From Amphiscolops sp. MND2022 (taxonomy: Eukaryota), in NCBI GenBank assembly GCA_964187785.1, contig OZ076409.1:42348001-42412000 (forward strand): a DNA stretch of 64,000 bases, given 5' to 3'. Below, piece by piece: positions 1 to 37,681 of this stretch (its first letter is position 1; each line of letters opens with the position of its first letter). The position numbers were made by a program, and so were the translations under genes. The notes under the pieces were generated by a model. It was not told the origin of the DNA. It searched no databases and saw nothing but the letters and a program-made list of their open reading frames with translations.

Positions 1-38
1 GTGAATCTGAAAATCAAGCCTCAACATCAAGGCCAACC

Positions 39-2090: not shown

Positions 2091-2437
2091 CAGTCCGCAA
2101 ATGAAGTCGAGGACCCTCGGCCCATTACGACTGACGAAACGAACATGCAGTCTCAATCCCTACCCGGTGATGCAAACAGCACACCACCCCAGGACGTACC
2201 TAGGTCCTACCCCAACGAACAGGCTGCAGAATACCCGAATCAAGATCATTCAGGCAGAGGGACACGAGCCCCCCTCTCTTCTAACACCAGGCAGTCCGAA
2301 AATGAGACCGAGAACCCTCGTCCCATTACGATTGCCGCAACCAACATGCAATCTGAATCCCCCTCAGGTGCTGTAAACGACACACCAACCCAGGACGAAC
2401 CCCAGTCCTACCCCCTGGCGCAGATTGCAGAATACCT
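2091..2437 (+). repeat. In-frame diverged direct duplication (201-bp offset) in the pol N-terminal extension
   Basis: QSANEVEDPRPITTDETNMQSQS...AAEY versus QSENETENPRPITIAATNMQSES...IAEY (2091-2236 vs 2292-2437). Confidence 0.85.
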
Positions 2438-4930
2438 CACAAGAGACCCAATCACCAAAGAGGAATGCATCCCAATCTTCTCAGCGGTGACTCTTAAGAA
2501 AAAGAAGAAGATGCTATTCGCCCCAATGGACTTCCAGGACCTGACCCTGGACGCCCTCATTGACTCTGGAGCGCTGGTCAACTGCATCTCCGAAACCGAT
2601 TACAACAAAATCCTTCAGATGTCCCCCAAGGACATAGTCAAAGAAATGGAACCACCCCCGTTCAAACTCCAAGTCGCAAACGGCGATATTGAAGCCCCCA
2701 CCAAAACAATAATCCTCCAATTTGAAATAGGGGACTGGAATTTCAAAGAGACGTTCATTGTTGCAAAACGACTGACAGGCCCAATACTTGGCCTCACATT
2801 CCTGAAAAACAACAGCGCCATTCTGGATGTAAGCCAAGGCCTACTCCACTTCCCCCATCTAACGTACTCAATTGAAACCGACGAGTACACCCGCAACCGA
2901 AAGATGTACAAAGTACAAGTAAAGAATCCAATCACCATTCCTCCTGAAACAACCCAGACAATCACAGCCTACACAGACATAACGTCTACCATCGGCACAA
3001 CCGGTGTCATCAACCCAGCTACCAACCATTATAGCGGTGACCCCCTAGTAGTAGCCAGCTCAATATCTACAGCCTCCAACAGGAAAATTGAGGTAAGGGT
3101 GACCAACACTACCCCCACACCCTACACAATAAAAAAGAACACGACGGTTGCTGAATTCAAAATTATGTCGCCCGAAGAAGCCAAAGAGCTCAAACCGCTC
3201 AACACCGCAGCACTAAAAGTGCTCACGGAGGATGATTCAGAAGATGCGATACTATACATCAACGAACTCCTGAAAACTTCGGACCAACCTTCCCAGAGTC
3301 AAAACTTTTGGTTCCCCACACCAGACAATCCTGGCGACCCTAATACCCACACGCCGATTCAAAGCAGAATACTGAGGGAAATCAAGGAACTGGAAGAGTT
3401 CCAGAAACTGGACCCCAATAACAATGCTGAAGACCGAGAGGCATTCCTCAAAAACTTTAAATGGGATGATTCCCAATTAACAGAAAATGACCAAAACGAC
3501 ATTGAGGAAATCTTGATAGAGTTCAATGACATTTTCGCGAGGCACCGACTAGACATCGGAATCAACCACGACTTTAAAATCAAGCTCACGCCACAAACAG
3601 ACGACCCAGTCTACTCGCAAAGCCTGCCTTGCCCCAATAACTTGAAAGAGGACTTGACGGTGGAACTGGCATTAATGCATTGCTTCGGGATTATAACAAC
3701 CCTCCCGTTCAGCAAGTATGCCAGCCCGATTTTCGCTCAACGAAAGCCGAACGGCCGCCTACGGCTCCTAGTAGATCTCAGAAAGATCAACAACCTGATT
3801 TCCGATGATTACTTCAATAACAATCATCCGGTCAGCACCCTCACGGACGCGGCACAACACCTCGCTGACAAGAAGTTGTTTTGTAAGCTTGATTGCTCAC
3901 AAGCTTACCACGTACTGCAGATGGCAGACCAGAAGTCAGTCCAACTCCTAGCTTTCAACTTCGCCAGCAGGACGTTCGCGTACCTCAGGCTGGCCCAGGG
4001 ACTGAGCCGCTCACTGTCATCCTTCTCAAGCTTCATGAGGGAGTATCTGGACAAAGCCATAAAGGCGGATAAATGCGCCCAATACGTGGACGACATTGGA
4101 ATCGCCACAAACACTCCTGAAGAGTTGAAAAACAATTTGAGAGAGGTCTTCCAATGCATCCGCGCCACAGGACTCCGACTCACAATGGCGAAATGTCAGT
4201 TCGGCGCCAAGGAAGTCGAATTCCTTGGGCGAACGATCTCCCCATCAGGTGTAGCACCCCAGAGCCACAAGATACAGAAATACTTGCAAACACTCAAGTT
4301 CCCCCGAACGAAGAAAGGACTTCAACGATATATCGGATTTGTGAACTATTACAGAAATTACATTCTTCGATTATCCGAGAAGATTGCCCCTTTCCACGAA
4401 CTCATCAAATCTGACAAGCCTGCCAAAATCGACCAAGAGCTCATAGCAAACTTTGAGGCCATCAACAAGTCCTTAGACAACGCGTGCGGGCTCTGGCTCA
4501 AACAGCCGCTGCCAAACCGGCAGTATGTCATGATGACTGACGCCAATTTCAAGAACGCAGGCTACGCCTTAATGACCGAAGAGGACCCAGAACAGAAACT
4601 CACCTCCACCAAGAAAACCTATGCTCCCGTGGCATTTGGATCTAAAACTTTCTCTCCGTCACAATTGAAAATGTCAATTTATGCCAAGGAGTTTTTAGCC
4701 ATCTATTTCGCCTTCATGGAGTATAGTCACATCTTGTGGGGTTCCTCCAAGCCAACCATCGTCCTAACAGACAATAAATCAGTCACAAGGTTTTTTCAAA
4801 CCAAAATGATTCCACCCTCCCTATGGAACGCTTGTGATTTCGTGCTCCAATTCCATTTCAAAATCTTATGTGTTAAGAGATTAAGTGATAAGTGTTAATA
4901 ACTTTAAAGCTATTATCCCATAATTACCAG

Positions 4931-6223
4931 TTAAGATCGATGCATTTTTTCAATAGTGTAGTTGAATTCGTCTAAGGATGTGCGAATGCACAAAGCTGAT
5001 TGGCTAATTCTTGTCGTATCAAATACGATATTTTGTATTATGCTTCGAGCTTGTTCAAGGGTATTTACGATTTCAGCGATTGTTATAAGAATATCTCGGT
5101 TTGGATGATGATACGGTTTTATGATATTCAGAATTTCTGTATATTTCTGTAATTCATCTGTTGGGCGAAAACTTTGTGGTTGAGGAATATCATTTTTGGT
5201 TTTCTTAGGCGATTCTTGTTTTGTCTTTTTATATTCTTTGTGATTTCCATTTGTAAGAAGTGAAAGCAGGTGGGAAATAATGAAAATTAATTCATTATTT
5301 GAATATCCCTTTTTGATCATTGCGTGGAAATAAGACTTTTCACAGTCTCCCAATGGTTGAGAGGCTATTTGTTGAAGTGGAGGAAGAGGATCAGATATAT
5401 GTTGAGGTATATCTTCTTGTAGTAACGAATCGTCGTTTAGAATGAGGTATTCTTGTGGAACAATGATTGGTCTTTTTGGGTTATCATTTGGAAGGAAGAG
5501 AAAACGCTGTTTCAGCGGGTCATAATTTCTAAGTTTTCCTTTTGTTTTGGTATGATCTATTAAATATTCTGAGTTGAAAGTGAATGGCGATGTATATTTG
5601 GAGTTGAAGAATATATAATTATCGGGCTCTTTATATTGAAGGAACTTTTGATAAGTCATATGGTGGGCCTTTTTGATTTGATTTGGCAAAAAATTTGCAT
5701 CATTTTCTTCTGTTCGAAGATCATATGGAGATGGTCTGAGGAAGTTGTATTGAAATGAGAAAATTTTCACTTTATTGTTTAACCACCAATCATATGGGGT
5801 AATCAGTTTTGAAGCAATTGATGTATGATAATCATTTTTAAATTCTCTGATGATGAATTTGTATTTTGTTGGAATCATGTATAACGAAGTTAACTGAGAT
5901 TGAAATGTGAATTGTTTCGACGAGAGAATAGGAACTAATTCACAATCTCTATCTTCATCTTGTTTAATTGGTTTTATGAAAGGAGGGCAAGCGCCAGATT
6001 CCATAAAAGGTTTATCTGCGGTTATATCTGGGTACTTTCTTTTTTGAGATCTTGTGTTAACATGATCTACTTGTTCAATAGGGATATTTATTATAGGATC
6101 TTGAGAGTTGGAGGAAGAGTTATTATCCTCGTTAACATTTTGTTGAATAGTTATATTCAAAGGGGTTGCAAGCAATTCAGAGGGATTAGAGTTAACTACA
6201 TCAATTTCAGGCAATTCTTCCAT
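4931..6223 (-). CDS. ORF5: intact 430-aa orphan accessory protein downstream of env
   Basis: Uninterrupted ATG-to-stop ORF with element-like composition. Acidic/disordered N-terminus, basic KRKYP motif, aromatic-rich core, helical-looking C-terminus. No family recognised. Confidence 0.8.
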   Translation of the reverse strand: MEELPEIDVVNSNPSELLATPLNITIQQNVNEDNNSSSNSQDPIINIPIEQVDHVNTRSQKRKYPDITADKPFMESGACPPFIKPIKQDEDRDCELVPILSSKQFTFQSQLTSLYMIPTKYKFIIREFKNDYHTSIASKLITPYDWWLNNKVKIFSFQYNFLRPSPYDLRTEENDANFLPNQIKKAHHMTYQKFLQYKEPDNYIFFNSKYTSPFTFNSEYLIDHTKTKGKLRNYDPLKQRFLFLPNDNPKRPIIVPQEYLILNDDSLLQEDIPQHISDPLPPLQQIASQPLGDCEKSYFHAMIKKGYSNNELIFIISHLLSLLTNGNHKEYKKTKQESPKKTKNDIPQPQSFRPTDELQKYTEILNIIKPYHHPNRDILITIAEIVNTLEQARSIIQNIVFDTTRISQSALCIRTSLDEFNYTIEKMHRS

Positions 6224-6351
6224 TATTTAAACTTGCGTGTTTTTGTAGAGCTAAAATAATGATTATAACATTTGATTACATTATTTCTAATACTAAGGAA
6301 AAATTTTGTTATGTCTTTTCTATCCATTAAATTGTTTGTTAAAATTAAAGT

Positions 6352-6704
6352 TTAAATTGTACTTACAATATGGGAATACTGGGTCAATGATGGGTTGAAA
6401 ACATCAACAATCACAGTGGCATCTATTCCAGGAATAGAAACTTCTGTGATTTCGGTCGTTTAGATGGACTGAAAATCCAGTTGAAGTCTTCTGGTTGAGA
6501 GTTGAGTTGAGTTGAAAAGGAGAGACCGGTCCGAGTGAGAATTTGGGTGTGAATGAAAGTTGAAACTGAGAAGAATTTGGTTGATAATTTTGTGAACTTT
6601 CTTGAGGTTAATTTGTTTTTTAAATTATTGCTTTTCAGCTAGGAGGGATTGAATTTTTTGAAGACTTTAGCAGGACTTTCCGGTACAGCTATTACATTTG
6701 ACAT
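6352..6704 (-). pseudogene. ORF4: small disrupted ORF overlapping the env tail, paralogous to the ORF3 C-terminal domain
   Basis: Manual translation across at least 2 lesions: MSNVIAVPESPAKVF...FQLSFTPKFSLGPVSPFQLNSTLNQKTSTGFSVHL/TTEITEVSIPGIDATVIVDVFNPSLTQYSHIVSTI*. Confidence 0.55.
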
Positions 6705-9215
6705 TATTGGGTCATAGTCCTGAGAATTAATATCGTTTATATTAGTTGGGTGTGTCTTTTGCGGTGATTGAAATGTTGAATTCTTACTGGAATATTTAGG
6801 AGGTAAATAAGGGGAGTCAGTATCAGAGTGTCTTCGTTTATTGTTTAATTCTTTTTCCGGCAATAGGATATTATCATTTTCACTTGTTGTAATTTTGTGT
6901 TTAGTGTATATCCGTTTTCGTTTTCCTGTATTATTTAAATCGGTTACCATTTCCGATGTAACTATATTAAAAAATCCATGGGCTATTGAACTCAAAATGG
7001 AAATGTTGCTTTGGAGATTATATTTTATGCTAATTGTTCTGTAGAATTTGAGTAAAAATGTTAAAACTTCTCTAATGAAAAGGAATGTTGAAAAATAAAT
7101 TCCACATTGGGTTAAAACATAACATGGGTATCCAAAGAAATTATTGAACGCTTGACTGAACCAGTCAGGGTTAAAAAGTGGTAAAAGATTTAACAAGTGG
7201 TCATGTACTCCAATCCTTAAATGATTATAGGGATTATGTCCTGAGTATGAGTGTTTTTCATTATGCATTGAAATGAAATCATAGCTCAATGATTTTCCAA
7301 GTAATTGAAGAGTTGTGTCTGAATGTTTAGCAAATAATACTCTATTCCAGAATTGATCTAATTCTGCTTTTGAGTATATACCGGCATCTTGGGCGGTAAA
7401 TGTATTAGGAGTGATTGTTGTTTTAATTTGGGTAGGTTTAAACATTTGTGGTGCTTCTCGTTTGAGTGGTTCTGGTGTTAACACATAAAAATCTCCGTCG
7501 TTGGAATCTGGATCTAATTCTATTATATTTTGTGGGTTATTTCCACATTCAATTGGTGTTGCGTAGTTAAAAGTTTGTCTTGTTATTGGGTCAACATACA
7601 TTATCGTTTCTCTGAAGTGTATAGGAATTCTATCAAAGCATTTATCTGCCTTGTATAGTGGTGATATAAAATGAGGGCAATCATACAGCCATGCTGTAGA
7701 TCCTTCAACGTAGAGAAAGTTACTACGATTTCCAGTTAAAAGAAAACCGGCTAATTGGGGATTTTTAACTGACATTGCTAGTATTGCTAACAGTTGAGTT
7801 CTTTCTAGTTCACATATTGTATGAAGAGTGTTTAGTTCTTGTACTGTCATGGATTTAAATACATGATTTATTGTGAAATCAATTTTTGTATTAATGTGGG
7901 CATCATAGTCTAAAGTGGCGAAATTGTTTGATATATTCAATGCAGGGAATATATACCTTTTGTTTGAATCATCATATTTTATATTTCCACTAAATGTTTG
8001 GTCAATTATTGAGTGTGGTTTTGGTAATCCTGTGTTCATATCAAAACCATCTAAGTATGTAACAAAGATGTCATCATATTGTGTTGAAAATAATGGTTCA
8101 GGTTTTCCACAGAAGGTTTGTGCAATTGGGTATATTTCAAATCGAGAAAGGCTTGGATTGCTTACTTTTGATTGTGGTGTTTTTATTTTAGGGTGTTTTG
8201 TTCCTTGTATTCCTTCGGTTTGAAGTTTTTGTGTGATGTTTGAAGTTTCATTGAAGGTATTGGTTTCTATCCAATATCTATCTTTGATTCGTGTCATTCT
8301 ACCAATGAATTCTTGAAGTTGAAATATGAGGCAAAATTTTTCATCAAACCATGTTAATGTATATGGAGTTTTGGTCGTTGGTTTACAAAATCCGTCTGAA
8401 TGATAACATGGTAATATGTGTCCGTCATGTATTAATTGATTGTTTTTATCGTCATAATCTATTGCGGTGTTAACAATTCTAAGTTTCCAACTTTGTCGGG
8501 TAATTAAATGTTCGCGGTCTGATCGACATCTAGAGTATGTATTTTGTGTAACATTAACTATCCAATCAGGATAATTTTTGTCAAATACGAAGGTTCCAAT
8601 ATGCCATGTATTTAATTTTTTTACTCTAAATGGTGTCTGAATTCGTTCAATTGTGTTTTGATAATTATTATCATCGAACAATGAGAAAGAGCTTTGTTTA
8701 TTGTAGTTGTATAATTCTTCGCTATCAGTCGCGTTTAAATATCTGATCATATTTTTGCATTCAATAGGGTCCAATATTTTTGGAAGTTCTAATGTGTTTT
8801 GTCCCCATTGTAAACGATCATATCGTCTACTAGATGTGAATGTTTGTGAACACCAGACTTTCTCAGTCTTTATATTTGCTTCACATTTAAAGGCTTTTAT
8901 TCTTTTGGCTTTTGCTCTAACGTAAACTGTTGCTTGGGTTTTTGTGTGTTGTATATCTGAGGGTGCTTGTTTACATGGTTCTACATTTAATAAACTGAAT
9001 TGTCTTAAGATATTTTGTTTTGCACAATCATAATGAGATACCATTAAGTTTAAAATGTTAGGATCTTGGTTTGAAATATGATTTTCGGAATTGGTGGTGT
9101 CAACTTTGGGAACAGTTGAAGGGTGAACTAAAGAGTGAACTATATTTATTTTATACGTGTATTTAACAATTTGTATTATATATATAAAATGAAAGGTAAA
9201 GGTGATTTGGTTCAT
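6639..9215 (-). CDS. env: Envelope glycoprotein, class III fusogen-like (chuvirus G / herpesvirus gB-type), 858 aa
   Basis: Hydrophobic N-terminus; N-terminal pattern HYDC...FSLLNVEPC...FKC...VWC...PIEC as in chuvirus-like glycoproteins; many Cys and N-x-S/T sites; central coiled segment; C-terminal hydrophobic stretch (YPCYVLTQCGIYFSTFLFIREVLTFLL), then a basic tail. Located 3' of integrase. Confidence 0.82.
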   Translation of the reverse strand: MNQITFTFHFIYIIQIVKYTYKINIVHSLVHPSTVPKVDTTNSENHISNQDPNILNLMVSHYDCAKQNILRQFSLLNVEPCKQAPSDIQHTKTQATVYVRAKAKRIKAFKCEANIKTEKVWCSQTFTSSRRYDRLQWGQNTLELPKILDPIECKNMIRYLNATDSEELYNYNKQSSFSLFDDNNYQNTIERIQTPFRVKKLNTWHIGTFVFDKNYPDWIVNVTQNTYSRCRSDREHLITRQSWKLRIVNTAIDYDDKNNQLIHDGHILPCYHSDGFCKPTTKTPYTLTWFDEKFCLIFQLQEFIGRMTRIKDRYWIETNTFNETSNITQKLQTEGIQGTKHPKIKTPQSKVSNPSLSRFEIYPIAQTFCGKPEPLFSTQYDDIFVTYLDGFDMNTGLPKPHSIIDQTFSGNIKYDDSNKRYIFPALNISNNFATLDYDAHINTKIDFTINHVFKSMTVQELNTLHTICELERTQLLAILAMSVKNPQLAGFLLTGNRSNFLYVEGSTAWLYDCPHFISPLYKADKCFDRIPIHFRETIMYVDPITRQTFNYATPIECGNNPQNIIELDPDSNDGDFYVLTPEPLKREAPQMFKPTQIKTTITPNTFTAQDAGIYSKAELDQFWNRVLFAKHSDTTLQLLGKSLSYDFISMHNEKHSYSGHNPYNHLRIGVHDHLLNLLPLFNPDWFSQAFNNFFGYPCYVLTQCGIYFSTFLFIREVLTFLLKFYRTISIKYNLQSNISILSSIAHGFFNIVTSEMVTDLNNTGKRKRIYTKHKITTSENDNILLPEKELNNKRRHSDTDSPYLPPKYSSKNSTFQSPQKTHPTNINDINSQDYDPIMSNVIAVPESPAKVFKKFNPS

Positions 9216-9217
9216 GG

Positions 9218-10686
9218 TTAAAATATTGATCTATAATTGAGTCCTGAGTAGGGATTAAAAAAGTTTATATGTCCTGTTCCAATATCAGGTAAATCTGCGT
9301 CACAAAGGTAGGAAATGGAGGTAACAATGAATGGTGATGGGGTTGTTTTATGTGCTACTCTTGTTGAAAGAGAGAATGGATGAGGTCCTAACGAGTTGAA
9401 TGTGACTTCTACTTCAAATTTTAATGTGAGTTGTTGTTCTTGTAGTCTTCGTAGTTCTCTTTGTTTTCTTTGAGTTGAGAGTGAACTATTGTTTATAAAT
9501 CTTGCAGGTAATACCGTGTATCGAGGATCTTCGTAAGCGTGCGAACAATTTTTGAGTTAACACGAATAAGATATTCGTGAGGATTTGGCGATGGAGGTCT
9601 TGAGAATTCTTCTAAAAAATATTCAGGTAATTGTATAGAGGAGTTTGATGCTATTGAACTAGGTGAGTAAACTCGTGAAAAATTAGCTGCGCTATCTGAT
9701 ATAGTTGCTGGCTCTTCAGAAAGAAGAGAGGCTGTTTCAAATCCTGATGTGATTTGAAATGGTAGTGATAGAGAAGATGGTATAGTGGGCTGAGATGAGG
9801 AAAGAGAAGAAGTGTCCAATCTGGGTTGGGCGTGTTGTCGAAGTAGTCTTGAGTTTGTACTTGAACTAGTTAAGGATTGTAATTCTTGAGAATCTCTTTG
9901 TTGTTGAGATCGAAGGTTATATTTATGTCTTGGTACTCTAGTACTAGCAGTTGAGTCAGAGTCTTTATCTTTATGATATAAATCAGTTAATGAAGAGGTA
10001 GTTGGTGAATGTACACGTTGTAATTCAAGCTTGGGATATCTTTGAGAAAATGTGAAGGAACTTAGTTCCGATGGTTTAGGAGTTGGGTTTTGTTGTGATT
10101 TTTTCGTTGGTGATTTTAATGAAGGTTCTGGTAAAAATGTTATTGGGATATTACTTGATGATGGTAAATCAAGATTTTGTGGTAATGTAGGAAATGGAGT
10201 TTTTCTTTTTGTTTTCGTTGCAGTTGGTACTTTGTGTGGACAAGAATTTATGTATTGTAGGACTGAGCTAGGATCAGGGATATGAATAGAACGAGTGGTA
10301 GTAATCAATGGAAGAGGAGGTCTATTCAAAATATCTGAAGTATCTTGTGTATTTGGTATTGTAGGTGTTTCATCATTAGAGTCAGAAAGTGGTGAATTTG
10401 TTTCTAAAAATGTTAGATTTCGTGAAATAGGTTGTGATTGAGTTGTTAATATTTGTGGTTGAGTTTGGGATATAGGTGTATTAGTGGGTGTTGTTGGTAC
10501 TCTATCAGGAGTATATGGAGCGGATGGATTGGGATTTGAGGATGAGGAATCCAGTATGTCTGTATCTGAGTTTAAATATGCTGTATATTCAGATAATCTT
10601 TGGAGTGAATGTGTTGAACTAGAAGAAGAGTTATTTGTAGTTGATGATGGTGAGTGAATATGTCTATCAATTTTGAAATCGTTGTG
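9218..10686 (-). pseudogene. ORF3: ~490-aa Ser/Thr/Pro-rich accessory ORF between integrase and env, one frameshift near 9552
   Basis: The 9493-10329 frame is open upstream to 10686 (no ATG found). After a one-base shift at an A5 run it continues AYEDPRYTVLPARF...GHINFFNPYSGLNYRSIF*, with TAA ending 2 nt before the env ATG. Confidence 0.7.
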
Positions 10687-10854
10687 TTATGATAGTTAGT
10701 TTCAGCTTGTAAACTATTTATAGTTTTATATCAATTAGGATTTCTTTTTTTATTCTCATTCGTGAAATAAATTTCATTTATTTTCGCATTAAGCTTCAAA
10801 CTTTTTCTTTCTTTCAAACTTTCTTTGTGTGTATTTCTTTCTGTATTCCGTATT

Positions 10855-12509
10855 TCAGCAGGATTTTTGAGAAAGTGAAATTATATCCTTTTCACCAAGA
10901 AAGAGTCGGTAGTCTTTTCTTGGTTGTGGGCGGAAATTGTATCTATTATAGGAGTGTCTTCGGGGATTAATAAAATTATCATAATCATGAATATCTGATT
11001 GGTTATCCAGGGAGGTATTTTGAGGAATTTGTTCTTTTTGTTTATATGGAAATGAAGAATATTGGTTAAATGGTTCTGGTTGTAAGTCAATCGTGGATGG
11101 TATATCCGTTTCTTTATTAAATGTTGTGGAAGGAAATTGTTCTTCGTCTGTAAATTTGTCTTCATCAGAGTTATATATTTGATCGTTTGTATTTGGATGA
11201 CAGTCATTAAATAAATGAGGGTTATATTGTTGTATGGAAGGGAAAATAACTGGTTCTTTTGGATAATAAGGAATTAAATGATTTCTATGTATGTGCGATG
11301 TATAACCATCTTGATTATCAATTTCATATGTTATATCGGAGAGTTTGTTAATAATTTTGAATGGGCCAATTCTGAGAGGTTTTAATTTATCGGAAAAATG
11401 AACATGGAGAAACTTTCTTTTTAGTACAAATGTACCAATATCTAAGGGTCTTGGATTGTGATATGTTTTGTTAAAATAAGCATAGGAATTAATCTTTCTT
11501 TTTGTGTTTTCATATACCGTATGGAATATCTCTATCATAGCAGTTTCAGTAGCTAAGATCCATTGTGGAATTGGTTTAGCTAAAATTTTATGAAAGAAAG
11601 GGTTTAGATTTGATTTGTCATAGTGTGTATGAAGTGGTAATTCTTGACAATATTGAGAAGTACAATTTCTATATGTATCTCTTTGGAGATTGAGTTCAAA
11701 GTTGATTGGAATTCTGGGTATAGTATGGAATACTATTTCATATGGAGATAAGTTTAATTCAGAAAGTGGTTGTGAATTATGTGCATAAGCATACATATGG
11801 ACTTGAGTTGACCAATTTTCTGGAGTGTTATGTAAGAAAAGTCTGAGATGAGTTCCAAGATTTCTGTTTTGATTTTCAACTAAACCATTTGTCCATGGTG
11901 CATAAGGAGTTCTTGGTGAATGTCTAATTCCCATTGTGGTACAAAGATTTGCAAATTCTGAATTAATATATTCTGTTCCACGGTCGGTAACTAGGTATAC
12001 AGGAGGTCCAAATTTTGTTATCCAATGATGTAGTAATGAGTTAACAGCGTTTTGAGCGTTATTTTGTTTTATCGGTACTGTTACTACAAAGTGACTAAAA
12101 GCGTCTACTATAACGTGAATGTATGAGTTTTGATTTGATGGTGGGTTTATAGGTCCTTTTGTATCCATTGATATTCGGTAATTAAAATATGAAGCATTTT
12201 CTGAGAAGGTATGTATAGATGCAGTTTGTAATTTTTGGTGTTTATTACAACGATGTGTTTATTGTGTTGGCATTCAATGCAATCATGGATGAATATTGAC
12301 ATCCATTTATTCAGGTACGGTATGAAGTAAAATTGGTTGAAAGCTTTGATGGATATTTTTATTCCTGAATGTCCATGAGCATGAAGTTTATTAAAAGCTG
12401 TGTGGAAAAGTTTAAAAGGTAGACATATTTTGTCTCTTTGATTCGGGTTTGAATCGTGAAGATTAGGATAATCTATGTGAATAATTTTTGTATCATGATT
12501 ATTATACAT
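10855..12509 (-). pseudogene. Integrase of element B (HHCC + DDE core + C-terminal domain), frameshift near 12240
   Basis: LHAHGHSG...DCIECQ zinc finger; MDTKGP, VDAFS, VTDRGTEY and NGLVENQN catalytic motifs; KLKPLRIGPFKI. Confidence 0.95.
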
Positions 12510-12837
12510 AATTGGTTGAAGAGTTTGTAATATACTAATAAGAAAAAGTTAGCTGCAATTGTTGGGTCTATTTGTAAGGGTCTTTCATTATTAAGTATCC
12601 ATTGGTAAACCTTTTGTAAAACAGTATCTTGATTTTGTTGAGTTTTTATGGTTTCAATGGTTATTTGTGTATCTTCTGGTAGGAAGAAGTAATTAAAATA
12701 TTTTTTGTATTTGAAAAAGGATGGATCAAAAAATGGAACTTGTTGTGTACAATAGTCAGATTTGGTAGGATATTGTTTAGCAAAGGTGTATTTTTTTACT
12801 ATGTTTGAGTTTTGTTGTTGGATATTATTTGATGGTG

Positions 12838-15744
12838 CTATTTCATCTTCATCACTAAGAATGTCAGTATCATTAAGAATTGTCGATTGTTGTAAAAGAG
12901 ATTTTGCTTGTTTTTTGTAGGTTTTTTATATTTTGATTCGAATGGAACAATAGATTGAAAAGAGAAGGAATCTAAAGGCTTTATATGTATATCTTCTCCT
13001 TTGTTATTTATACGGATGGAGAATTGGTCGTCTCCGTAGTCAGCAAGGATAGGATGACAATCATTCTTTTGATTATATTTTATTTCTTCATGTTTTACTA
13101 AATAATGTACTGGTTTGAGTTGATTATCTTTCATGTTAGAGAAATCTATTTGAGGTGGTAATTGTTTGTGTCGTAATTGGTGTACTTGTAGCTGTTCTTT
13201 TGTAAAGGTTCTTGAAAGCATATCTGCTACAGTTAAATTTTTTCCAGGGGTATGAATGATTTTTAATTTAGAAAATTTGGTTAATTGCATTTGTGCTCTA
13301 TAGAATCTAGGACTAAGATTTCCTTTCTTTGCGAAACAATGTAGTAAAGGCTTGTGATCTGTGAAGAGATATATAGGATGAGGAGATCCAATGATCAAAA
13401 ATTCATACATTTGTCATGCGTAAACTATTGCAAGAAGTTCTCTGTCTAAAGTTGAAAGTTTTTGTTCTTGTGTATTGAGAATTCTGGAGTTATAAGAGAT
13501 TACTTTCATCTTATTTTCTTCGTTCATTTGGAATAGGACTGCGCCTAAACCTACTAACGAAGCATCTACTGTTATAAAAAATGGATGCGTGGTGTTGGGT
13601 TTTGTTAATTCAGTGTTTGCTGTCATTGCGTTTTTAACATTTTGAAATAGTTTTTCTAATTCAGGTGTCCATTGAAATTTAACATCATCATGTAGTAATG
13701 TATACAATGGTTTAAGGTCTATATGAAGTTTTTCAATGAATTTTGAATAAAAGTTAACACTGCCAAGAAATTGCATAACATCTTTCTTTTCTTTTGGTGA
13801 TGGGATTCTTTTAATAGCTTCAATTCTGGATGGAATTGGCTTAATTGTGTTGTTACCAATTTCATGTCCAAGGAATTTTACTTTGAGTAACATGTAGAAC
13901 GATTTTTCAGGTGCAAGTTTGAGATTTTCTCGAGATGCTATTGAATGTAATTCTTTTATAAGTTCAAACATTTCTTGTTTTTCATTTGCGAGTAATATGA
14001 TATCATCTATATAGACTAACGCAGAACGTTTGTCTATAAGTGATCTAAAGAAAGTTGACATTTGTTTTGTGAAAAAGTTTGGAAGTCCTTTTAATCCGTA
14101 AAATCCACGGATAAAGGCGTATAATTTGTCACCGGATGAAAATCCTGTAAGTTTAAATGTTTCTTCATCTAATGGTGTATGAGCATATGCATACATTAGA
14201 TCAATAGTTGATTTGTATTTTTTATTTGCTCTAGCTAATTGAGGAGCTAAAGGTTCAATAGGCCAAGATTCAAGTTCTTGGTTAGTGTTTGAGTTTAGAT
14301 GTCTTGCGTCTAAAACAACTTTTATTGCGTCTCCTTTTGGGATAATAATTAAAGGGTTTAAAAATGTTGTTCCAATAGTATGTTTTTCATCTGTTGTCGA
14401 ACCACTTTGTTTTATGATGTTGTATTTTTCGAGTTCTAGTAAAAGTTTATTTAGTCTATCTCTATAGTGGATAGTTACTTTAGAAGGTCTTTGTGTGTGA
14501 AGTTTACAATTATCTTTTATTCTAATTCGAAAAGGAGTAGAAATCTTTCCTACGTCGTTTTTATGTTTGGCGTAACAATTTTGGTTGTTAATTAGAATAT
14601 TGCAGAGATTTACATATTCTGTATCGGTTAAATCTGAGTATTCGAAATTGAACTTCTTTATGAATTGTTGGTTTTCTGTAGAATAAGGTAAAGGAGGGAA
14701 ATCTTTTCGAATTTTATCTGAAGGTCGAAGGTTTCCAGTAACAGAAGGTATAGGAAGTTGAAGTGTTTTGTCGTTAATTTCTATCTTGTTTATTTCTAAT
14801 AGGGATTGTGGTATTACCCTAGTACATAAGTTCATATCTGTATATGGATTTTGTTGAATCGGGGTTGTGGTATCAGGGTGATATGCATGTATTACAGAGT
14901 GAATGAGTGAATTTACATCGTTAACTCTGTAGTGAGGAGGAGTTGTTTGCGTAATAGGTATTTCTATATATCCAATAATTCCTCGTGGTAATGTAGCTGG
15001 GTAAGATGTAAAGTTTTGAGTTATAGTTGCACATGAGTCTTTGCTTTTTTCATTGACTATCATGTCTAAGAAATGAAAGATATTTTTAAATTTTTGTAAG
15101 AAGTATGTATATGGGTTTGTTGGGTAGAACTTCGTATTATCTTCGAGTTCAAAATGTAGATTTGAATAGTTTTTAATTGGAAAATGTATGGTCTTTCCTG
15201 ACCTTGGTTTAAAGTGAATTGGTTCCTTACATTTAATAGTATAAATGTAAGAAATATATGGATAATCTGTTTCTGTAAATGTAGAAAATGTAGTTTTTGT
15301 TGAAAGCTTTGGATGTTGTTCTGTGTACGTCATAATGTTTTGTTGAAAATCAATATTTTGGATGTGCTTTTTGAAAAAGGGTGTTCCAAGAATGTTGTAT
15401 TTGATATTTGCTACGGCAAAATCGATAATGAAGGATCGTGTTTTGTGATTTACTTCAGTGAAACAGGTCATCGAAATATAATGTATTATTGGTACTTCAG
15501 TTTGGTTTGCAACTGTAAGAGTTTTGGCTCTTTTGTTTTGGAGGTTAGTGGGAACATTGATGTTTAATTGTTTGGAAATTACATGAAATGTTGGTAAATT
15601 CAAAACAGATACGGAAGCTCCAGTATCTAAAAGGAATAAGATTTCTAATTTTGAAGGTAAAATGTTGTCATTTGTTTCAGAGGCGTCAATATATAGTGGA
15701 TAAAACCAACTATAAGGAATGATTGTATTAGCTATTTCAGTCAT
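12838..15744 (-). pseudogene. pol: PR-RT-RNase H of element B, in-frame TGA at 13414-13416
   Basis: FLLDTGASVS; VYIDDII; KFLGH; TVDASLVGLG; DRELLAIVYA*QMYEF...FTDHKPL...VADMLSR. Confidence 0.95.
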
Positions 15745-18700
15745 TTGACAGGTGTGGATTTCAAATTTTGTACTATCATTTTCTTTTGGGGTTTTAACGT
15801 CTACTTGATTTATTCTGTTTTGTTGTCTGTTTCTTGAGGGTGTTCTAGATCTTGATCTAAAATCTCTAGGTCTTGATGGAGATCTAAATGGATAATTATA
15901 TCGTTTAAAGTAGTTTCCTTGTGATTGAGAACGAGATCTGTATCTTGAGCGAGAATTATATCTGTAATTTGAGTTATTTCTGTATGGAGATCTATATGGA
16001 GATCTAGATGGAGTTCTTCTTTGATAATAATTATCAAATCGAGATCTATACGGACTTCGGGATCGATTATAATATCTTTGTCGAGAGTTTGATCTATAGT
16101 TGTTTTGCGAATATTCTCTACTATTGCTACGATATCTATCATTGTTTCTGTATCTATCATTATAGTAGTTTTGATTATATTTATTACGATCATTATCTGA
16201 GGAATAAGAGTTTGTATTTTCATTTCGATTTTCCTGAGGATTATTAGGTTTACTGCGAAAATATTGTACAAAGGATTGTTGAGGAGTTCGTGATCTTTGG
16301 TTATTGTATTTCTGGTATTCGTCATCACGTTGTTTTTGCTAACAATTTGAAATACTATGATAATTTTTATGACAATAGGAACAATATTTTCTATACGCTG
16401 GTTTGCTTTTGTTATTTGGGTCTCCAGTTTGAGTAACCATTATCTGATCTTCGTATTCAAATTCTTTTTTGTTAGTATTCTCTTCAAGCGATACTTTGTT
16501 TATTTCTAGGGCTAAGTCGTTAGTTCTGATTTTTTCATTAGCAATATCTTCTGAATCGACATGTCTAACAAGTGTATGAAATGGTATTGAAGGTTCAAGT
16601 AATGTTGATACATGTTTAACTTGTCGTTTATGGGCAAAATTTTTTAACTTCTTTGGTAACCCTCTTATAAAGATTTCTTTATTTTTGAGATTTATGGTAG
16701 CTGCATTTTCATTACACCATCCCTTTTTAACTAATTGTTTTACTCTAAGGGCGCAGTGGCGAACTGTTTCATTATCCTTTTTCATGAGTGACATAGCTTC
16801 TACTCGAGCGTAGTAAGCAGTTTTTTGAGATGAGAATTGTTTTTTGAATAGTTTTACAAAAGAATTCCATTGTTGTTTATATGATATATGGAGGTTAGTG
16901 TACCAATCGAGAGCTGTTCCTATTAATGAGCATTGTATGTAAGCCATGCGTCTGTTATGCCAAAATTTGTATTTTATAGGATTATTTTGAGGTTCTTCAC
17001 CTATGGCGAAGGTTAATCTTGCTTCGACTTGTTGTAGATATTCTTCGGGGGTGTAAGAATGGTCCAAACCATCAAAAGGTTTCATAGGTTCTGGTATTGA
17101 AGCGGACATGTTTATAAAGGTATCTTGTGGCATTGGTAAATATTGGGGTGGAGGAGCTAATTTTTGTGTGAGTGGTGGAGGTATATGTTGGATTGTATTT
17201 GGTGGTAATGGGTTAGGATTAGGGTTAGGATTTGGATTTGGATGCGTTTGATACAGAGGATCAGTTGGTATGTGTGTAAGTGGAGGATTATGAAGTCTTC
17301 TTTGAGAATCCTGTGTAATATTAGAATAAGAAATTGAAGTACACGAGATTCCTTGATTTTGAGAATATATATTCTGGGATGTATTGGTATTTGATAATTG
17401 TATGAAGGGGTTTGTGTTGTTGAAATTGTAATAATTTGAGAGTGGTTTTGGTTTATATTTGTATTGGTAGTTGTGTTTGATGGAGGATAAAAGTTATAAT
17501 TAAATGGATCGTAATATCGGTTGGAAGTTTGAGGATTATCATTAAAATTGTTACTAGAAGTGGTCGATCGGTTTGAGCGAAAGGCGGAGGGAATTGATGG
17601 AGGATCATATCTAGGTCGAGTAATGTATCTTGTAGAATCAGAGGTAGTTCTTGTTGGAGATGCAACATTAGCAGAAGTATTCTGAGCACTAGATGTAGTC
17701 ATAGTATTATATTGTAATGTATCATGGGTTTCATCGTTTATGTCATCTGTATGTGGAAGGTTAAAAGTTATATTACGGTTTGGAGATGTATCTAAATGGG
17801 ATTGAGGACTATGTATATTTTGTCTTTGATTTACAACTCTAGTGGGAACTCAAAAGGAGTGAGTATGTACTGATGTTGATGTCCCTGTTTGTGATGGATT
17901 ATATGTTGAGATTGTAGATTCTTGGGTAGTAAACTCTTATCGTTATAGTTTTCAGGTTGATTTTGTTGTTGGGTTGTATTTTCCTGATCGGTGATATCAT
18001 CTTCAGTAGAATTGTTAGTGTTAAAATGTAAATTTTGTTGATCTTGAGAATTTTGTTGATAGTGGTAAGGTCTATTATCTGGGAATAGATCATTTTCTGT
18101 AATTAATAGAGGATCGAAACGTATGTAATCTAAGGTTTGTTTTGTAATTAATTGTGGTTTATGAAAGTAAGGATGTTCATTTTGTTTACTGATGACGAAT
18201 GGTAAACATTCTTCTAATGTAAATTGATCTGGAAATTCTGTAAAAGCAGATTGATCTTGTTGAGACCATAATAGTTGATAATTAAATCTGAAAGAGTTTC
18301 TGAGAAATAAAGATATTGTTTTGATCTGAGGAATTGTTTGATCATTTAATGTTAGGTCTTTGAAGTAGTGGTAGATGAAATTTTGAATTCGTAGTATATC
18401 AGCTTGTAACCAATGATGAGGGTTGTCTTCAGGATTAACCAATGTTTCAATAATTTCTACGTCGAAATTGTCTATGTATCGTTGCAGATCGTCGAGTGCA
18501 TTTGGACTATATTTTGGAATTTCGTGTGCTAAATTGTGGTCTTTTACATTATTTAGAAAAGCATGAAAAACTTGTTTAATAGGAACTTGAAGGTTTATTG
18601 GGTTTATTGTTCTTCTGTATATATGAGATGAGTTAAGTTTTTGTTGAGGAAAGGATATTTGAAAAATTGGGTATTCTTCAGTGATTGTTAAAACTTTATA

Positions 18701-18899
18701 TCTAATATAGAAAAGGTATGTGTCCAAATGTTCTCTAATAAGAGGGATTGTTTCAATTGTGTGGTTCATTTTCAAATGGGAGTGGTTGTGTATAAAGTGA
18801 AATAATGTTTTGTAAAAATGGGTTTAGTTCTAATTTTACAACTTTTGCATTTTTAATGACGGGAGTTTGGAAAGGTAGAGGGGTTGTCGTTGAAGACAT
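15745..18899 (-). pseudogene. gag: Very long gag of element B (N-terminal extension, capsid, CCHC, RS-rich tail), in frame with pol
   Basis: ATG at 18899 (MSSTTTPLPF). Fragments 17831-18775, 17157-17702 and 16339-17133 are joined by frameshifts. Capsid-like MKPFDGLDHSYTPEEYLQQVE; knuckle CSYCHKNYHSISNC; TAG at 16339, then an open RS-rich frame running directly into pol. Confidence 0.8.
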
Positions 18900-18935
18900 T
18901 TTTAAAGTTTATCTCTTATCACTGTAAGTATTTTT

Positions 18936-19118
18936 TCAAGAAGAACACAAACAAAAAGTTCGAGCTCTTGGGTAATTTCGTTGTTGATTTATGATAAAGA
19001 AAAAATATCGTTGATATCGTTCAATTAATCTTTCAAAATCGTTTGGTGTAGGGTTTTGAAGTGAGCTAATTGGTGGAATGTAAAAGTTGAAAGGATAAAT
19101 TTCTTGGTTTGGGTTCAT
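18936..19118 (-). CDS. Short upstream ORF (60 aa) in the leader of element B
   Basis: ATG-initiated, same strand and composition as the element, ends 36 nt before the gag ATG. No recognisable motif. Confidence 0.35.
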   Translation of the reverse strand: MNPNQEIYPFNFYIPPISSLQNPTPNDFERLIERYQRYFFFIINQQRNYPRARTFCLCSS

Positions 19119-20144
19119 ATAAGTTGTATTGTAATTTGAAGTTATTTAGAAGTTAATATTTTAGGATAGAGAAGAAATAAGCGGGTGCAGTAGGATCTGT
19201 ATTCAACCTCAAAGGATTGCTAACAGAAACTAAATGTTATTTTAAGTCTGGATCTCTTTAAGGTGTCTAACATAAGGTTACTGACACGTCCAGAAAAAAC
19301 TAAGGTTGTTTTAATTTTAAGTAGGTTGTGTGTTTTAAGACTAAAGGAGTGGAACTCTGAACAATCAACGTCCACTATCCAAAGTCTGATCAATACTGAT
19401 CAAGATCAAAACTTGATCTTTGTTTCTTTTACTTTTACTTTTACTTCCTGAGAATTTTGAAGATTCGAACGTAGTTCGGTTTCCTCTCGATTCTCCTTAA
19501 AAACGTTTACACTTAATTAAGGTTTTTAGTCAGTCTTAGAATCAGAGTACGCTGGTGAGGCTATCTGATTGGCTAAGTCTTACGGGAGGGAATAGCAATT
19601 GTGGGTGCCTGAAAGTAAAAAACTAACTTTACTTTGTTTGTGTTATTTACATGCCTTATTTTAAGTTTTAAAGCAAAAGAGATGTGAAAATTGTATGTTG
19701 TATTTTGTTAAAATAATTGTTTTGTAGGATTATGTTAAAATTATTAGTATTGGAAGTACTTGAGGTAAGTTTGAGTTTATTTGTTATTGTTCTTTTTGTT
19801 GATTATTGAAAACATTTTTGAAGTTATTTGTATTATTTAAGTTTTGTGAATTTATTTGTATTGTTTGTCGACAATAGGGAAAGAAAGGGAATAGTGCGTG
19901 GTTGTTTTTGGTAGTTAGTCTTGGTTGCCTTTTTTTGTTTTCAGAGTCTATTTCTGAAATTTTTTTGTAGGAAATTTTGTAGAAAGGGGATCCGAAACGT
20001 AAAAGTAGAAAATCCAGGTTTTCTGCCAACACGAAGTTGATCTTGAGACGTATGTGCTTATAGGTGAGCGGAGTTGGACATGCACTCAGTCAACTATTAC
20101 ACCAGGAGTCCACCTGACGTTCAATATAGCAGGATTGAAGAAAG

Positions 20145-20820
20145 TTGCTGTGTCAAAGGTGTTAGAAAACCTTGATAAACCAGACAAATGTTGCTGTGTC
20201 AAAGGTGTTAGAAAACCTTGATAAACCAGACAAACATCAGACAACTGTTTCAACAAGCTTCCGGATTAGCTGTGATAAATCAGTATGGAGAACAGAACTG
20301 TGTCACTTTTGATAAATCAGTCTGGAAAAAGAAGAACAAGACGGGAACGTCCCAAGTCGGCGCCATATCTTAGGCTCAAAAATATTCAAGGAACAACTAT
20401 TGGAAAAATTTGGAAAAAATTTTTTTTTCAAAAAAATTTTTGATTTTTTTTCGAAAAAAAGTATTTTTTTAGGTCGCACAATGCCGAAAAACTCAAAAAT
20501 AGGCCATTCAGGCTCATTCAACGTTTTCTACAAACCGACGGATGGAAGATGAACAAATATGAAAGATGAACAAAAATTGTAAGAAAAGTGGACCACTCAG
20601 AGTGAGATTGTCAACTGAAAAAAAAACTGCTCACTGTAAGAGTCGGGCTTTTTTCCTTAAGGGAAAAGGCGCCGACTAAAAACAGAACTGTGTCACAATG
20701 GATAAATCAGTCTGAAATGAAACCGTTTCAACGTATTGGAAAACGTGATAAACCGGTCTGGCTAGAAGAACAGGAAGAAGAACCGTGTCAACGTGTTAGA
20801 AAACGTGATAAACCGGTAGT
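20145..20820 (+). repeat. Degenerate tandem repeat (core TGTCA...GATAAACCAG), interrupted by a HINE-A copy
   Basis: Exact 44-bp duplication 20145-20188 / 20191-20234, with further variants at ~20299, 20689, 20725 and 20785. Confidence 0.75.
20335..20682 (-). mobile_element. Helentron/HINE (DINE-1-like) non-autonomous element, family A
   Basis: Minus strand reads TTTTAGTCGGCGCC ... GGCGCCGACTT-GGGACGTTCCC-GTCTTGTT: asymmetric sub-terminal inverted repeat, 3' hairpin, T-rich insertion site, no TSD. Confidence 0.75.
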
Positions 20821-33707: not shown

Positions 33708-33715
33708 TCCTCCCC
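33708..33715 (-). promoter_or_regulatory. Polypurine tract of element C
   Basis: Minus strand GGGGAGGA immediately before the 3' LTR start TGTAACG. Confidence 0.8.
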
Positions 33716-37648: not shown

Positions 37649-37666
37649 GTCTCTTGTGGGGCGCCA
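37649..37666 (-). promoter_or_regulatory. Primer-binding site, tRNA-Lys-like, 15 nt from the LTR
   Basis: TGGCGCCCCACAAGAGAC matches the standard tRNA-Lys(UUU) PBS TGGCGCCCGAACAGGGAC at 14/18 positions. Confidence 0.65.
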
Positions 37667-37681
37667 TAAAACTATTCTAGA

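Follow-up and report, generated by a model that had tools for sequence, protein, structure and literature searches.

A long Ty3/gypsy element with a predicted class III-type env and conserved flanking ORFs in the genome of Amphiscolops sp.

Introduction

Complex vertebrate retroviruses, such as foamy viruses and lentiviruses, carry accessory genes around env. Env-carrying elements of Ty3/gypsy type, with an HSV/gB-type env, were described by Chary and Hayashi as 'ancient errantiviruses' (PMC13524379); the screen covered regions of up to 10 kb and, outside insects, pol-env distances of up to 1 kb, with manual extension for some groups. Its available text does not mention 'accessory' or 'extra ORF', and its table includes a ctenophore element whose two LTRs are separated by about 13 kb. 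The available excerpts on the planarian Burro elements (PMC6431247) describe giant gypsy elements of more than 30 kb, in thousands of copies, with accessory ORFs, a MATH/TRAF domain and an env homologous to mononegavirus fusion glycoproteins, located in frame between gag and pol within a polyprotein of about 5,000 aa. Gypsy-like LTR retrotransposons of bdelloid rotifers captured env or other genes after pol, each family having a single additional ORF (F-type env, GDSL or DEDDy) (PMC5408684, excerpts), and the Cer1 element of C. elegans encodes the accessory regulator CERV from a spliced RNA (PMC10309623, excerpts). CUG starts with leaky scanning and budding through PSAP-TSG101 are established in other viruses (PMC3542737 and PMC3705263, in the parts available). 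Env-bearing gypsy elements and gypsy elements with extra ORFs are both known; their combination in the layout described here was not found in the literature.

The present element resembles the ancient errantiviruses in its Ty3/gypsy pol, gag-pol-env order, multiple copies in an invertebrate, unconserved furin site and class III-type env, kin to chuvirus and BEL glycoproteins, and it fits the broad errantivirus definition of the available text, under which an F-type or gB-type env accompanies gag and pol in one element; it differs in its length of 18.5 kb, its single Gag-Pol frame of 2,700 codons, its pol-env gap of 1.6 kb occupied by a conserved gene, and its genes after env (PMC13524379). With Burro it shares giant size, a copy number in the thousands, an invertebrate host, accessory ORFs, the kinship of env and, in its sister families F4 and F5, the MATH/TRAF domain, but its env is separate and after pol, and its ORF3 and ORF5 match no known domain (PMC6431247, excerpts). 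Assignment to Burro was rejected, since env is not between gag and pol in a polyprotein. Unlike the bdelloid elements, it shows env plus several conserved flanking genes (PMC5408684, excerpts), and Cer1, which has a different layout, may serve as a descriptive model for ORF5 (PMC10309623, excerpts). Rice tungro bacilliform virus ORF I-III, with a non-AUG start and long-distance leaky scanning in a reverse-transcribing virus, and the CUG-initiated Gag extension of gammaretroviruses are comparable to ORF3 in their starts, but these examples from Caulimoviridae and Retroviridae do not concern an ORF preceding env in a gypsy element (PMC3542737, available part). The earlier reading of the sequence likened the element to complex vertebrate retroviruses, and the analogy of layout, with accessory genes around env, and the PSAP motif (PMC3705263, available part) stand, whereas the RT resembles that of Ty3, the env is of class III type and the PSAP lies outside Gag, in an ORF of its own. 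Membership of Retroviridae was rejected, there being neither a retroviral RT nor a class I env.

Extent, copies and related lineages

The window, the whole 64,000-nucleotide stretch that was analysed, contains on the minus strand, from 21328 to 4871, a damaged copy of an abundant, unusually long Ty3/gypsy provirus of about 18.5 kb. As the sequence-only reading had proposed, it is a single-strand unit, with uniform composition between about 5,000 and 20,000 (GC 30-36%, constant skew), and its LTRs, PR-RT-RH-IN order and Ty3-like RT agree with the Ty3/Gypsy assignment. The invertebrate host likewise proposed is consistent with 71 innexin and 0 connexin matches, the connexin search being one without a positive control. 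The ends of the copy and its secondary insertion are:

21060..21328, minus strand: 5' LTR of 269 bp, TGT...ACA; sister copies carry these 269 bp at either end
21048..21056, minus strand: primer-binding-site-like motif starting with TGG, 3 nt past the LTR; in 16/17 F1 copies, with one variant
20340..20677, no strand assigned: 338-bp secondary insertion of a dispersed repeat; sister copies align across this point without it
4866..4876, no strand assigned: breakpoint; homology to sister copies stops at 4871, where the pol of another gypsy element, on the plus strand, starts

The border is put at 21328 and not, as proposed earlier, at 20030, and the proposed size of about 15 kb gives way to 18.3-18.6 kb, the length of 14 of the 17 whole copies measured. 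About 2.2 kb are gone from the 3' end of the window copy, with ORF6, a doubtful ORF7, the putative polypurine tract and the 3' LTR, and the 338-bp insertion, kin to repeats elsewhere in the window, is private to it. Eighteen copies are colinear at 96-98%, with common LTRs (269 bp, TGT...ACA; intra-copy identity 97.8-100% in 17/18) and target-site duplications of 4 bp in all 17 copies having both ends; in sister copies a short purine-rich tract precedes the 3' LTR. The gene order is LTR, long leader with small ORFs, Gag-Pol, ORF3, env, ORF5, ORF6 and LTR.

The genome contains at least four sub-lineages, F1, F1b, F2 and F2b (17.6-18.5 kb in the three measured). The gene order of F2 and F2b matches that of F1, the 9-mer of the primer-binding-site-like motif is identical in F2 and F2b leaders, and ORF3, ORF5 and ORF6 recur in identical order in the four lineages of this one genome. 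Three other env-bearing families show different extra ORFs, with a TRAF/MATH domain in F4 and F5. In all lineages env is a separate ORF 3' of pol, and the RT and env trees, containing families of this genome alone, are congruent across six families.

Leader and Gag-Pol

20833..21015, minus strand: putative small leader ORF, 60 aa, amphipathic; open in 16/16 leaders parsed
18936..19118, minus strand: small leader ORF, measuring 54 aa in sister copies; all 15 sister leaders parsed contain one ORF of 54 aa and one of 36-37 aa
10855..18899, minus strand: Gag-Pol, a single frame of about 2,680 codons, from Pfam matches and mapped pieces

The leader ORFs are all small (37-60 aa), and the copies are too alike for a selection test on the 60-aa ORF. 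In the window copy, a deletion of about 110 bp near 18954 changes the end of the 54-aa ORF and removes a third, hydrophobic ORF of 37 aa. A 312-aa frame before gag, formerly taken for an upstream ORF, is instead the N-terminus of Gag-Pol.

Gag-Pol shows an N-terminal domain, an S/T/P-rich linker, Retrotrans_gag, a protease motif, RT, RNase H, a bridge of about 290 aa without match in a Pfam search, and integrase. Its Pfam order in pol (RVT_1, RT_RNaseH, Integrase_H2C2, rve) confirms the domain order read earlier from the sequence; the PR-RT-RH-IN order, with integrase last, sets Ty3/Gypsy apart from Copia and Gmr1. The F1 protease is visible only as an LDTG motif before RT, and that of F4 as a weak Pfam match. 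Among solved structures, the RT is by sequence closest to Ty3 (chains at E 2e-34 to 2e-33; next chain 8e-24; Pr125Pol 1e-18) and not to retroviral RTs. Gag-Pol of the window copy is broken by six frameshifts and at least two stops; it is uninterrupted over at least 2,598 codons in 1/6 F2, 1/2 F2b and 0/18 F1 copies. The skewed, A/C-rich DNA also yields long spurious frames, such as a 209-codon alternate frame within gag.

Env

6639..9215, minus strand: env, 858 aa, uninterrupted in the window copy; PF24664, E 7.9e-26

The frame at 9215-6639 has the length of 858 aa first reported. By PF24664, which matches in five env lineages (E 4e-24 to 7e-41), env would be a class III-type (Monjiviricetes) fusion glycoprotein. 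It contains a transmembrane segment at 704-722, followed by a long tail with PPxY, and 13 cysteine columns common to six env lineages, and no RxK/RR furin site was found; in F1 env, no N-terminal segment exceeds the hydropathy threshold. The dN/dS of env between lineages is 0.10-0.18 (F2 vs F2b, 0.13; F1 vs F1b, 0.10), and that of RT is 0.03 for F2 vs F2b.

Replication could be entirely intracellular, env and the accessory ORFs being used for steps within the cell or for manipulating the host, with the PSAP and YPxL-like motifs of ORF3 incidental. The very high copy number, the env broken in 16/18 F1 copies, the TRAF/MATH gene of sister families, which points to interference with host signalling, and the statement in the available text of PMC13524379 that transmission mechanisms of most such elements remain unknown all fit this reading. 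It is nevertheless held to be rather improbable, as the low env dN/dS, the shared cysteines and the retained transmembrane segment oppose it, and the env breaks in F1 fit decay after insertion, with a within-family dN/dS of 0.70.

ORF3 and its start

9218..10554, minus strand: ORF3, with about 445 aa counted from a conserved CTG, supported by dN/dS and F1-F2 identity; one frameshift in the window copy

The gap of 1.6 kb between pol and env is occupied by the conserved ORF3, whose stop is followed by CC and the env ATG, a spacing already noted and seen in the window. The length of about 490 aa first given holds for sister copies, open over 489 codons, but the window copy has its frameshift and ORF3 shows no in-frame ATG and no Met; absence of Met is weak on its own, since the 316-aa S/T/P-rich Gag linker of one F1 copy is also Met-free. 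From the CTG, ORF3 is intact in 13/18 F1, 5/6 F2 and 4/4 F2b copies. F1 and F2 proteins are 41% identical, with a conserved, putatively alpha/beta domain of about 135 aa at the C-terminus; no known domain was matched, and a fold model made as a check for a C-terminal matrix fold was weak (pLDDT 48.5). The dN/dS between lineages is 0.17-0.55 (F2 vs F2b, 0.17 [0.12-0.23]; F1 vs F1b, 0.30), synonymous sites being close to saturation in F1 vs F2 comparisons.

At the first conserved residue, all 35 sequences show a CTG whose -3 position is A and whose +4 position is G. In gag-pol and env, CTG accounts for 0.9-3% of the Leu codons; in ORF3, the CTG at this position is the sole one among 47 (F1) and 42 (F2) Leu codons. 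Of the first 30 residues, 21 are identical between F2b and F2, nine of them with silent changes. From the CTG to env only 2-3 ATGs are observed, compared with 7-8 in codon shuffles (p 0.007, 0.019, 0.056 and 0.027, values that, like the motif occurrences, lack independence given the kinship of the four lineages; F2 by itself does not reach significance), whereas the other ORFs show an ATG surplus. These ATGs mostly open just 1-17 codons (two out-of-frame ATGs in F1 ORF3 open 15-16), and in one F2 copy 158 codons are open from a new ATG. Homology starting at a rare, strong-context CTG, together with AUG depletion before env, suggests CUG initiation with leaky scanning: ORF3 and env would probably be read from one subgenomic RNA, ORF3 being initiated inefficiently at the CUG and the remaining ribosomes scanning AUG-poor RNA for about 1.2-1.3 kb until they reach the env AUG.

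Alternatively, splicing could join ORF3, as a second exon, to an exon from the leader or gag, giving an accessory gene for a regulator such as an RNA-export factor, the CTG being conserved for another reason; CERV of Cer1 is encoded by a spliced RNA (PMC10309623, excerpts), in F1 there are 44 open codons upstream of the CTG, along with several AG dinucleotides, and the signals around ORF5 (below) suggest that the element splices. However, the open stretch there is just 8 codons long in F2 and 6 in F2b, F2b shows no AG between the upstream stop and codon 29, the first 30 codons are conserved as protein, and a fused exon needs no AUG depletion before env, which leaves this origin of ORF3 distinctly unlikely.

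Late-domain motifs in ORF3

A PSAP is located at ORF3 residue 9-10 in all four lineages, with differing codons and 0.04-0.07 expected per protein by chance; it is absent from Gag-Pol (without any P[S/T]AP), env and ORF5. A YPxL-like motif follows at about 140-180 in the four lineages. PSAP is altered in 3/35 copies and the YPxL-like motif in 1/7 full-length ORF3s. ORF3 is 36-41% S/T/P, a composition in which short proline motifs arise easily. The motifs lie in the disordered N-terminus of a protein encoded directly before the glycoprotein gene, and in these motifs and this position ORF3 would resemble a mononegavirus-type matrix protein gene. It is conceivable, at somewhat less than even confidence, that ORF3 is a separately encoded budding adaptor with a matrix-like role, which would recruit ESCRT through both motifs and couple capsids to Env-bearing membranes, permitting cell-to-cell spread. 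The three other env-bearing families show neither an ORF3 homologue nor PSAP, so such a gene is dispensable for some elements with this env type.

Region downstream of env

6224..6638, minus strand: env-ORF5 spacer, supposed site of ORF4; no long ORF
4931..6223, minus strand: ORF5, 430 aa, uninterrupted in the window copy; at least 98 genome matches at 97-100%

Accessory genes had been placed on both sides of env. ORF3 and ORF5, inside the LTR pair and under purifying selection, bear this out, but an ORF4 of about 115 aa is found in 0/21 F1 sequences, in each of which the stop-free runs between env and ORF5 peak at 65-91 codons, or at no more than 46 when counted from a Met. The spacer contains a conserved segment of about 29 codons (6453-6367) and, just upstream of ORF5, a 116-nt intron-like stretch GTAAGT...TTTTAG (6366-6251), whose signals are present in 20/21 F1 sequences; GGTAAT lies just past the ORF5 stop in F1, F2 and F2b.

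ORF5 occupies the frame previously read (6223-4931), is 41% identical to its F2 counterpart and has a basic KRK/KKR patch near residue 60; it showed no known domain in Pfam, no Atlas match and no usable fold model. Its dN/dS between lineages is 0.15-0.25 (F2 vs F2b, 0.15 [0.11-0.21]; F1 vs F1b, 0.16). Tentatively, ORF5 may be a regulator that works in the nucleus, in RNA export or transactivation, and is made from spliced RNA. ORF6 is probably kept by purifying selection, and its F1 and F2 versions do not align. ORF7 shows a dN/dS of 0.82 [0.43-1.56] and is open in 3/18 copies.

A dN/dS near 1, or a separate insertion, had been set beforehand as evidence against ORF3 and ORF5. The ratios found, far below 1, indicate real genes, and both share the LTRs of the element. 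That the extra ORFs are neutral cargo, artefacts of A/C-rich composition or a separate insertion accords with the spurious frame in gag and with the unsupported ORF7 and ORF4 as described; yet ORF3, ORF5 and ORF6 lie inside the same LTR pair in every complete copy and their divergence is biased to third positions, so the probability of this explanation is negligible, and for ORF3 and ORF5 LTR linkage and dN/dS rule it out.

Discussion

The explanation moderately favoured overall is a Ty3/gypsy lineage that amplified recently and has an organisation like that of a small enveloped virus, in which ORF3, env, ORF5 and probably ORF6 are maintained under purifying selection. A bolder proposal, on balance doubtful, is that the copies are endogenous forms of undescribed complex enveloped invertebrate retroviruses that evolved within Ty3/gypsy, in which budding would have moved from Gag to a CUG-initiated matrix-like protein before a class III fusogen, possibly as a matrix-glycoprotein cassette from a negative-strand RNA virus, with spliced 3' regulators and, in sister families, captured TRAF-like immune modulators.

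Env-bearing gypsy elements are now known across animals, and for their cell exit and regulatory genes this lineage offers a concrete candidate, a conserved, apparently non-AUG gene with late-domain motifs whose translation would be coupled to that of env. Annotation that requires an ATG overlooks ORF3, and screens that stop at 10 kb or allow no more than 1 kb between pol and env would tend to miss the element, so that counts of such complex forms may be too low. The presence of several young families with differing accessory sets in one genome makes convergence on a complex-retrovirus layout testable.

Structure and copies of the element

The Ty3/gypsy core with an envelope gene proposed in the sequence-only reading was confirmed: Retrotrans_gag, reverse transcriptase (RT), RNase H, integrase, an 858-aa env and the 430-aa ORF5, a frame 3' of env, are all on the minus strand of the window, and the nearest relative of the RT among solved structures is Ty3. 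Between approximately 5,000 and 20,000 this strand shows a uniform low GC content and constant skew, and the flanks differ. The genome contains at least 98 matches to ORF5 at 97-100% identity, 83 of those listed without a stop, in a list of best-scoring candidates only, which is biased and gives a lower bound. Of the ORF5-bearing copies, 20 were compared over their 3' parts and 18 over their middle and 5' parts. Most of these copies are colinear with the window at 96-98%, and two of the 20 end before ORF3, the frame between Gag-Pol and env. The terminal repeat is the following:

21328-21060, minus strand: LTR of 269 bp, at both ends in 17 of 18 copies, 97.8-100% identity

A 4-bp target duplication is found in 17 of 17 copies, and 14 of the 17 measured range from 18,346 to 18,564 bp. 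The window copy shows a private 338-bp insertion and a deletion of about 110 bp, and it stops at 4871 against another gypsy element, with about 2.2 kb missing. Because of the LTRs, target duplications, copy lengths and this missing segment, the element is about 18.5 kb, instead of the approximately 15 kb first estimated, and the extra ORFs sit within one LTR-bounded element and are not a separate insertion. A long LTR enclosing ORF5 is ruled out by the 269-bp LTR. The core is real and ordinary-looking, with an unusual, selection-supported accessory layout; this layout resembles that of a complex retrovirus, as had been suggested, but the element is not a member of Retroviridae. The host genome shows 71 innexin matches and, in a search without positive control, no connexin match, which fits a non-chordate invertebrate.

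Other repeats are present in the window. Positions 1-4871 (plus strand) belong to another Ty3/gypsy element, of higher GC content (about 48%), in which gag, zinc knuckle, protease and RT are present and RNase H is cut at the junction with the studied element. In region 32984-38368, a direct repeat occurs twice in identical form at a distance of 4,698 bp, the interval contains no long ORF, and a related copy (79-100%) is near 62585-63255; this arrangement probably represents either a recent duplication or a non-autonomous LTR element of very young age. Near-perfect hairpins at 41093-41295 (98-bp arms), 50904-51185 (141-bp arms) and 26929-27018 (45 bp) are probably foldback or MITE-type repeats.

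Gag-Pol and leader region

The 312-aa upstream ORF, taken at first as a gene of its own, is the start of Gag-Pol, since the frames of sister copies continue through it into gag and RT. Gag-Pol is a single unbroken frame of at least 2,598 codons in one of six F2 and one of two F2b copies (F2, F2b and F1b are lineages of the same genome related to F1, the lineage of the window element). The window gag-pol is interrupted by six frameshifts and a minimum of two stops; none of the 18 F1 copies has a whole gag-pol and two have a whole env, as expected of post-insertion decay, to which assembly errors may contribute. The true leader ORFs are small (60, 54 and 37 aa). The F2 and F2b leaders (L063:1508-1860 and L099:1743-2204, plus strand) show two small hydrophobic ORFs of 39-40 and 70-79 aa, with 17 of 37 and 29 of 74 residues identical and second codon positions conserved. 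They are present in three and four, respectively, of the four F2 leaders parsed (six in all), and are candidate small membrane proteins.

Related lineages and selection on the additional ORFs

F1b is an older lineage, with an ORF5 80% identical to that of F1. The F2 ORF5 is 41% identical to F1 and has at least 94 matches in the genome; F2b is 70% identical to F2, with at least 90 matches. F2 and F2b measure about 17.6-17.8 kb, have LTRs of 412-420 bp, and keep the order Gag-Pol, ORF3, env, ORF5, ORF6. Pairwise Nei-Gojobori dN/dS on natural open frames between F2 and F2b is 0.03 for RT, 0.05 for integrase, 0.13 for env, 0.17 (0.12-0.23) for ORF3 and 0.15 (0.11-0.21) for ORF5; ORF6 shows a pN of 0.26 against a saturated pS of 0.83. 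Between F1 and F1b, the values are 0.10 for env, 0.30 for ORF3, 0.16 for ORF5, 0.82 (0.43-1.56) for ORF7 and, in one of two pairs, 0.23 for ORF6, the other frame being aligned over 47 codons only. With silent sites near-saturated, ORF3 shows 0.42 for F1 vs F2 and 0.55 for F1 vs F2b. Within F1, env (0.70) and ORF3 (0.75) show the near-neutral drift expected of a control. Between lineages, the ORF3 and ORF5 values are well below 1 and not near it. The ORF6 of F1 and F2 gave no alignment. ORF6 and ORF7 lie 3' of the break of the window copy; in 13 of 18 copies the ORF6 frame runs for 190 codons or more without a stop, and ORF7 is open in three of 18. Because of the between-lineage dN/dS, ORF3 and ORF5 are considered genes and ORF6 is probably a gene; ORF7 is unproven as such.

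Proposed start codon of ORF3

ORF3 contains no Met in 489 (F1), 418 (F2) and 420 (F2b) open codons. In 35 of 35 sequences, its between-lineage homology starts at a CTG-coded Leu that has A at position -3 and G at +4. CTG represents 0.9-3% of the Leu codons in gag-pol and env, and this CTG is the only one among 47 (F1) and 42 (F2) ORF3 Leu codons. From the CTG to the env ATG, two or three ATGs are observed vs seven or eight in codon shuffles (p 0.007, 0.019, 0.056 and 0.027), and the other ORFs show ATGs above the shuffled level. Stops lying between pol and ORF3 in F2 and F2b rule out readthrough or frameshift from one into the other. A standard splice from an upstream exon is disfavoured, because F2b, with six open codons before the CTG, shows no AG before codon 29 although 21 of its first 30 ORF3 residues are identical to F2, nine through silent changes. 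For viruses, PMC3542737 reports both CUG starts in such a context and leaky scanning over long distances. It is fairly probable from these codon patterns that ORF3 is initiated at CUG, with leaky scanning to env, with the caveats that a Gag linker of similar make-up is also Met-free (F1 linker as only control), that the lineages are not independent and that short AUG frames persist between CTG and env. In listings of the open-licence literature, neither this layout nor any gypsy element whose env is preceded by a CUG-initiated or late-domain ORF was found.

Possible functions of ORF3 and ORF5

ORF3 consists of 36-41% S/T/P and has a conserved C-terminal domain (dN/dS 0.10, F2 vs F2b). All four lineages have a PSAP motif at residue 9-10, encoded by differing codons, and there is a YPxL-like motif at about 140-180. 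P[S/T]AP is absent from Gag-Pol, env and ORF5, and Gag-Pol has scattered PPxY and YPxL-like matches. In negative-strand RNA viruses, the matrix gene precedes the glycoprotein gene. ORF3, with its late-domain motifs, directly before a class III glycoprotein is reminiscent of this order. In foamy virus Gag, TSG101 is recruited by PSAP, according to PMC3705263. These motifs suggest, tentatively, that ORF3 could be a budding adaptor. The model of the C-terminal domain, a possible matrix fold, is weak (pLDDT 48.5): its best Z among 48,161 chains is 4.8, with none at 5 or more, and it had no viral match below E 0.001.

ORF5 shows a basic patch near residue 60 in F1, F2 and F2b and no membrane segment; its AlphaFold model, from 21 sequences, reaches pLDDT 33. 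A nuclear regulator like CERV (PMC10309623) would be a guess by analogy, and a rather doubtful one. Pfam gave no family for ORF3, ORF5, ORF6 or ORF7, PDB sequences no match for the ORF3 profile or env, and the Atlas no usable match for ORF5 or ORF3; no ORF3 relatives were found in metagenome contigs and no env relatives in viral contigs. The ORF5 matches (best 120 of 303 and best 120 of 277) and all 91 ORF3 matches are 62-99% identical to the query, and these listed homologues are probably from the same genome or a near one.

Region between env and ORF5

An ORF4 of about 115 aa had been placed here, and no such open frame exists in 21 of 21 sequences, where open stretches reach a maximum of 65-91 codons, or of no more than 46 when counted from a Met. 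The spacer contains a segment of about 29 codons, conserved in F1b and echoed in F2, and directly after it, in 20 of 21 F1 sequences, comes a stretch of 115-116 nt with GTAAGT and TTTTAG at its ends; both together are probably what was read as ORF4. In F1b the flanks of this stretch are in phase with ORF5, with 100-104 open codons there in three copies, and F1 has a stop two codons upstream of the ORF5 ATG. The segment may be an exon, with few silent changes (2-4 of 28-29 codons), and its splicing would be putative.

Envelope and sister families

The env matches PF24664, the Monjiviricetes fusion glycoprotein (E 7.9e-26). Six env lineages share 13 cysteine columns and retain the transmembrane segment, and none shows an RxK/RR site; infectivity of the element would be a prediction. 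The cytoplasmic tail shows a PPxY at residues 805-819 in F1 (window 6639-6900 region), F2 and F2b, possibly a second budding or trafficking signal. Env relatives at 26-36% identity are on other contigs. A distant env query found three other env-bearing gypsy families (F3, F4 and F5, two copies examined of each), 45-47% identical to F1 in RT and 26-30% in env. For the six families, the tree from RT and the tree from env are in agreement; the former also included the gypsy next to the studied element, on a long branch that is not reliable. Neither tblastn nor blastp matched any extra ORF of F3-F5 to ORF3 or ORF5. Because F3-F5 carry their own extra ORFs without ORF3/ORF5 homologues, accessory gain around this env type is read as having occurred more than once in this genome.

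Extra ORFs and LTR regions of the sister families

L084:5572-7143, plus strand: F3, 519-aa ORF 3' of env
L085:5356-6507 and L087:5570-6340, plus strand: F4 and F5, TRAF/MATH protein 3' of env (PF21355, E 9e-23 and 8e-22)
L085:573-1805 and L087:531-2351, plus strand: F4 and F5, pol-env gap of 4-4.7 kb
L091:8316 to L085:2900 and L093:7697 to L087:2900: F4 and F5, LTR regions of at least 0.7-1.2 kb with tandem repeats (about 86 bp in F4)

F3 is about 12.3 kb, with a 508-bp LTR and env directly after pol; its 519-aa ORF shows a coiled-coil-like C-terminal half, no Pfam match and weak similarity to the F4 post-env ORF (E 2e-4). F4 and F5 have total lengths near or above 20 kb. Their TRAF/MATH protein is possibly a captured immune-signalling modulator, and ahead of its gene there is an ORF of 153-169 aa, 40% identical between families, in both examined copies of each. 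The pol-env gap contains two or three paralogous ORFs of about 105-155 aa (25-57% mutual identity, no Pfam match), another accessory family directly 5' of a class III-type env.

Comparison with known elements

According to PMC13524379, gypsy elements whose env is of gB type occur widely among invertebrates; its screen favoured regions of up to 10 kb with up to 1 kb between pol and env. In the excerpted text of that report accessory ORFs of the found elements are not discussed, and similar elements could be among the entries of its tables. As described in the respective reports, Burro elements have env homology together with MATH/TRAF and accessory ORFs, in another arrangement (PMC6431247), rotifer elements captured single extra ORFs (PMC5408684), and Troyka has other termini (PMC12440569).
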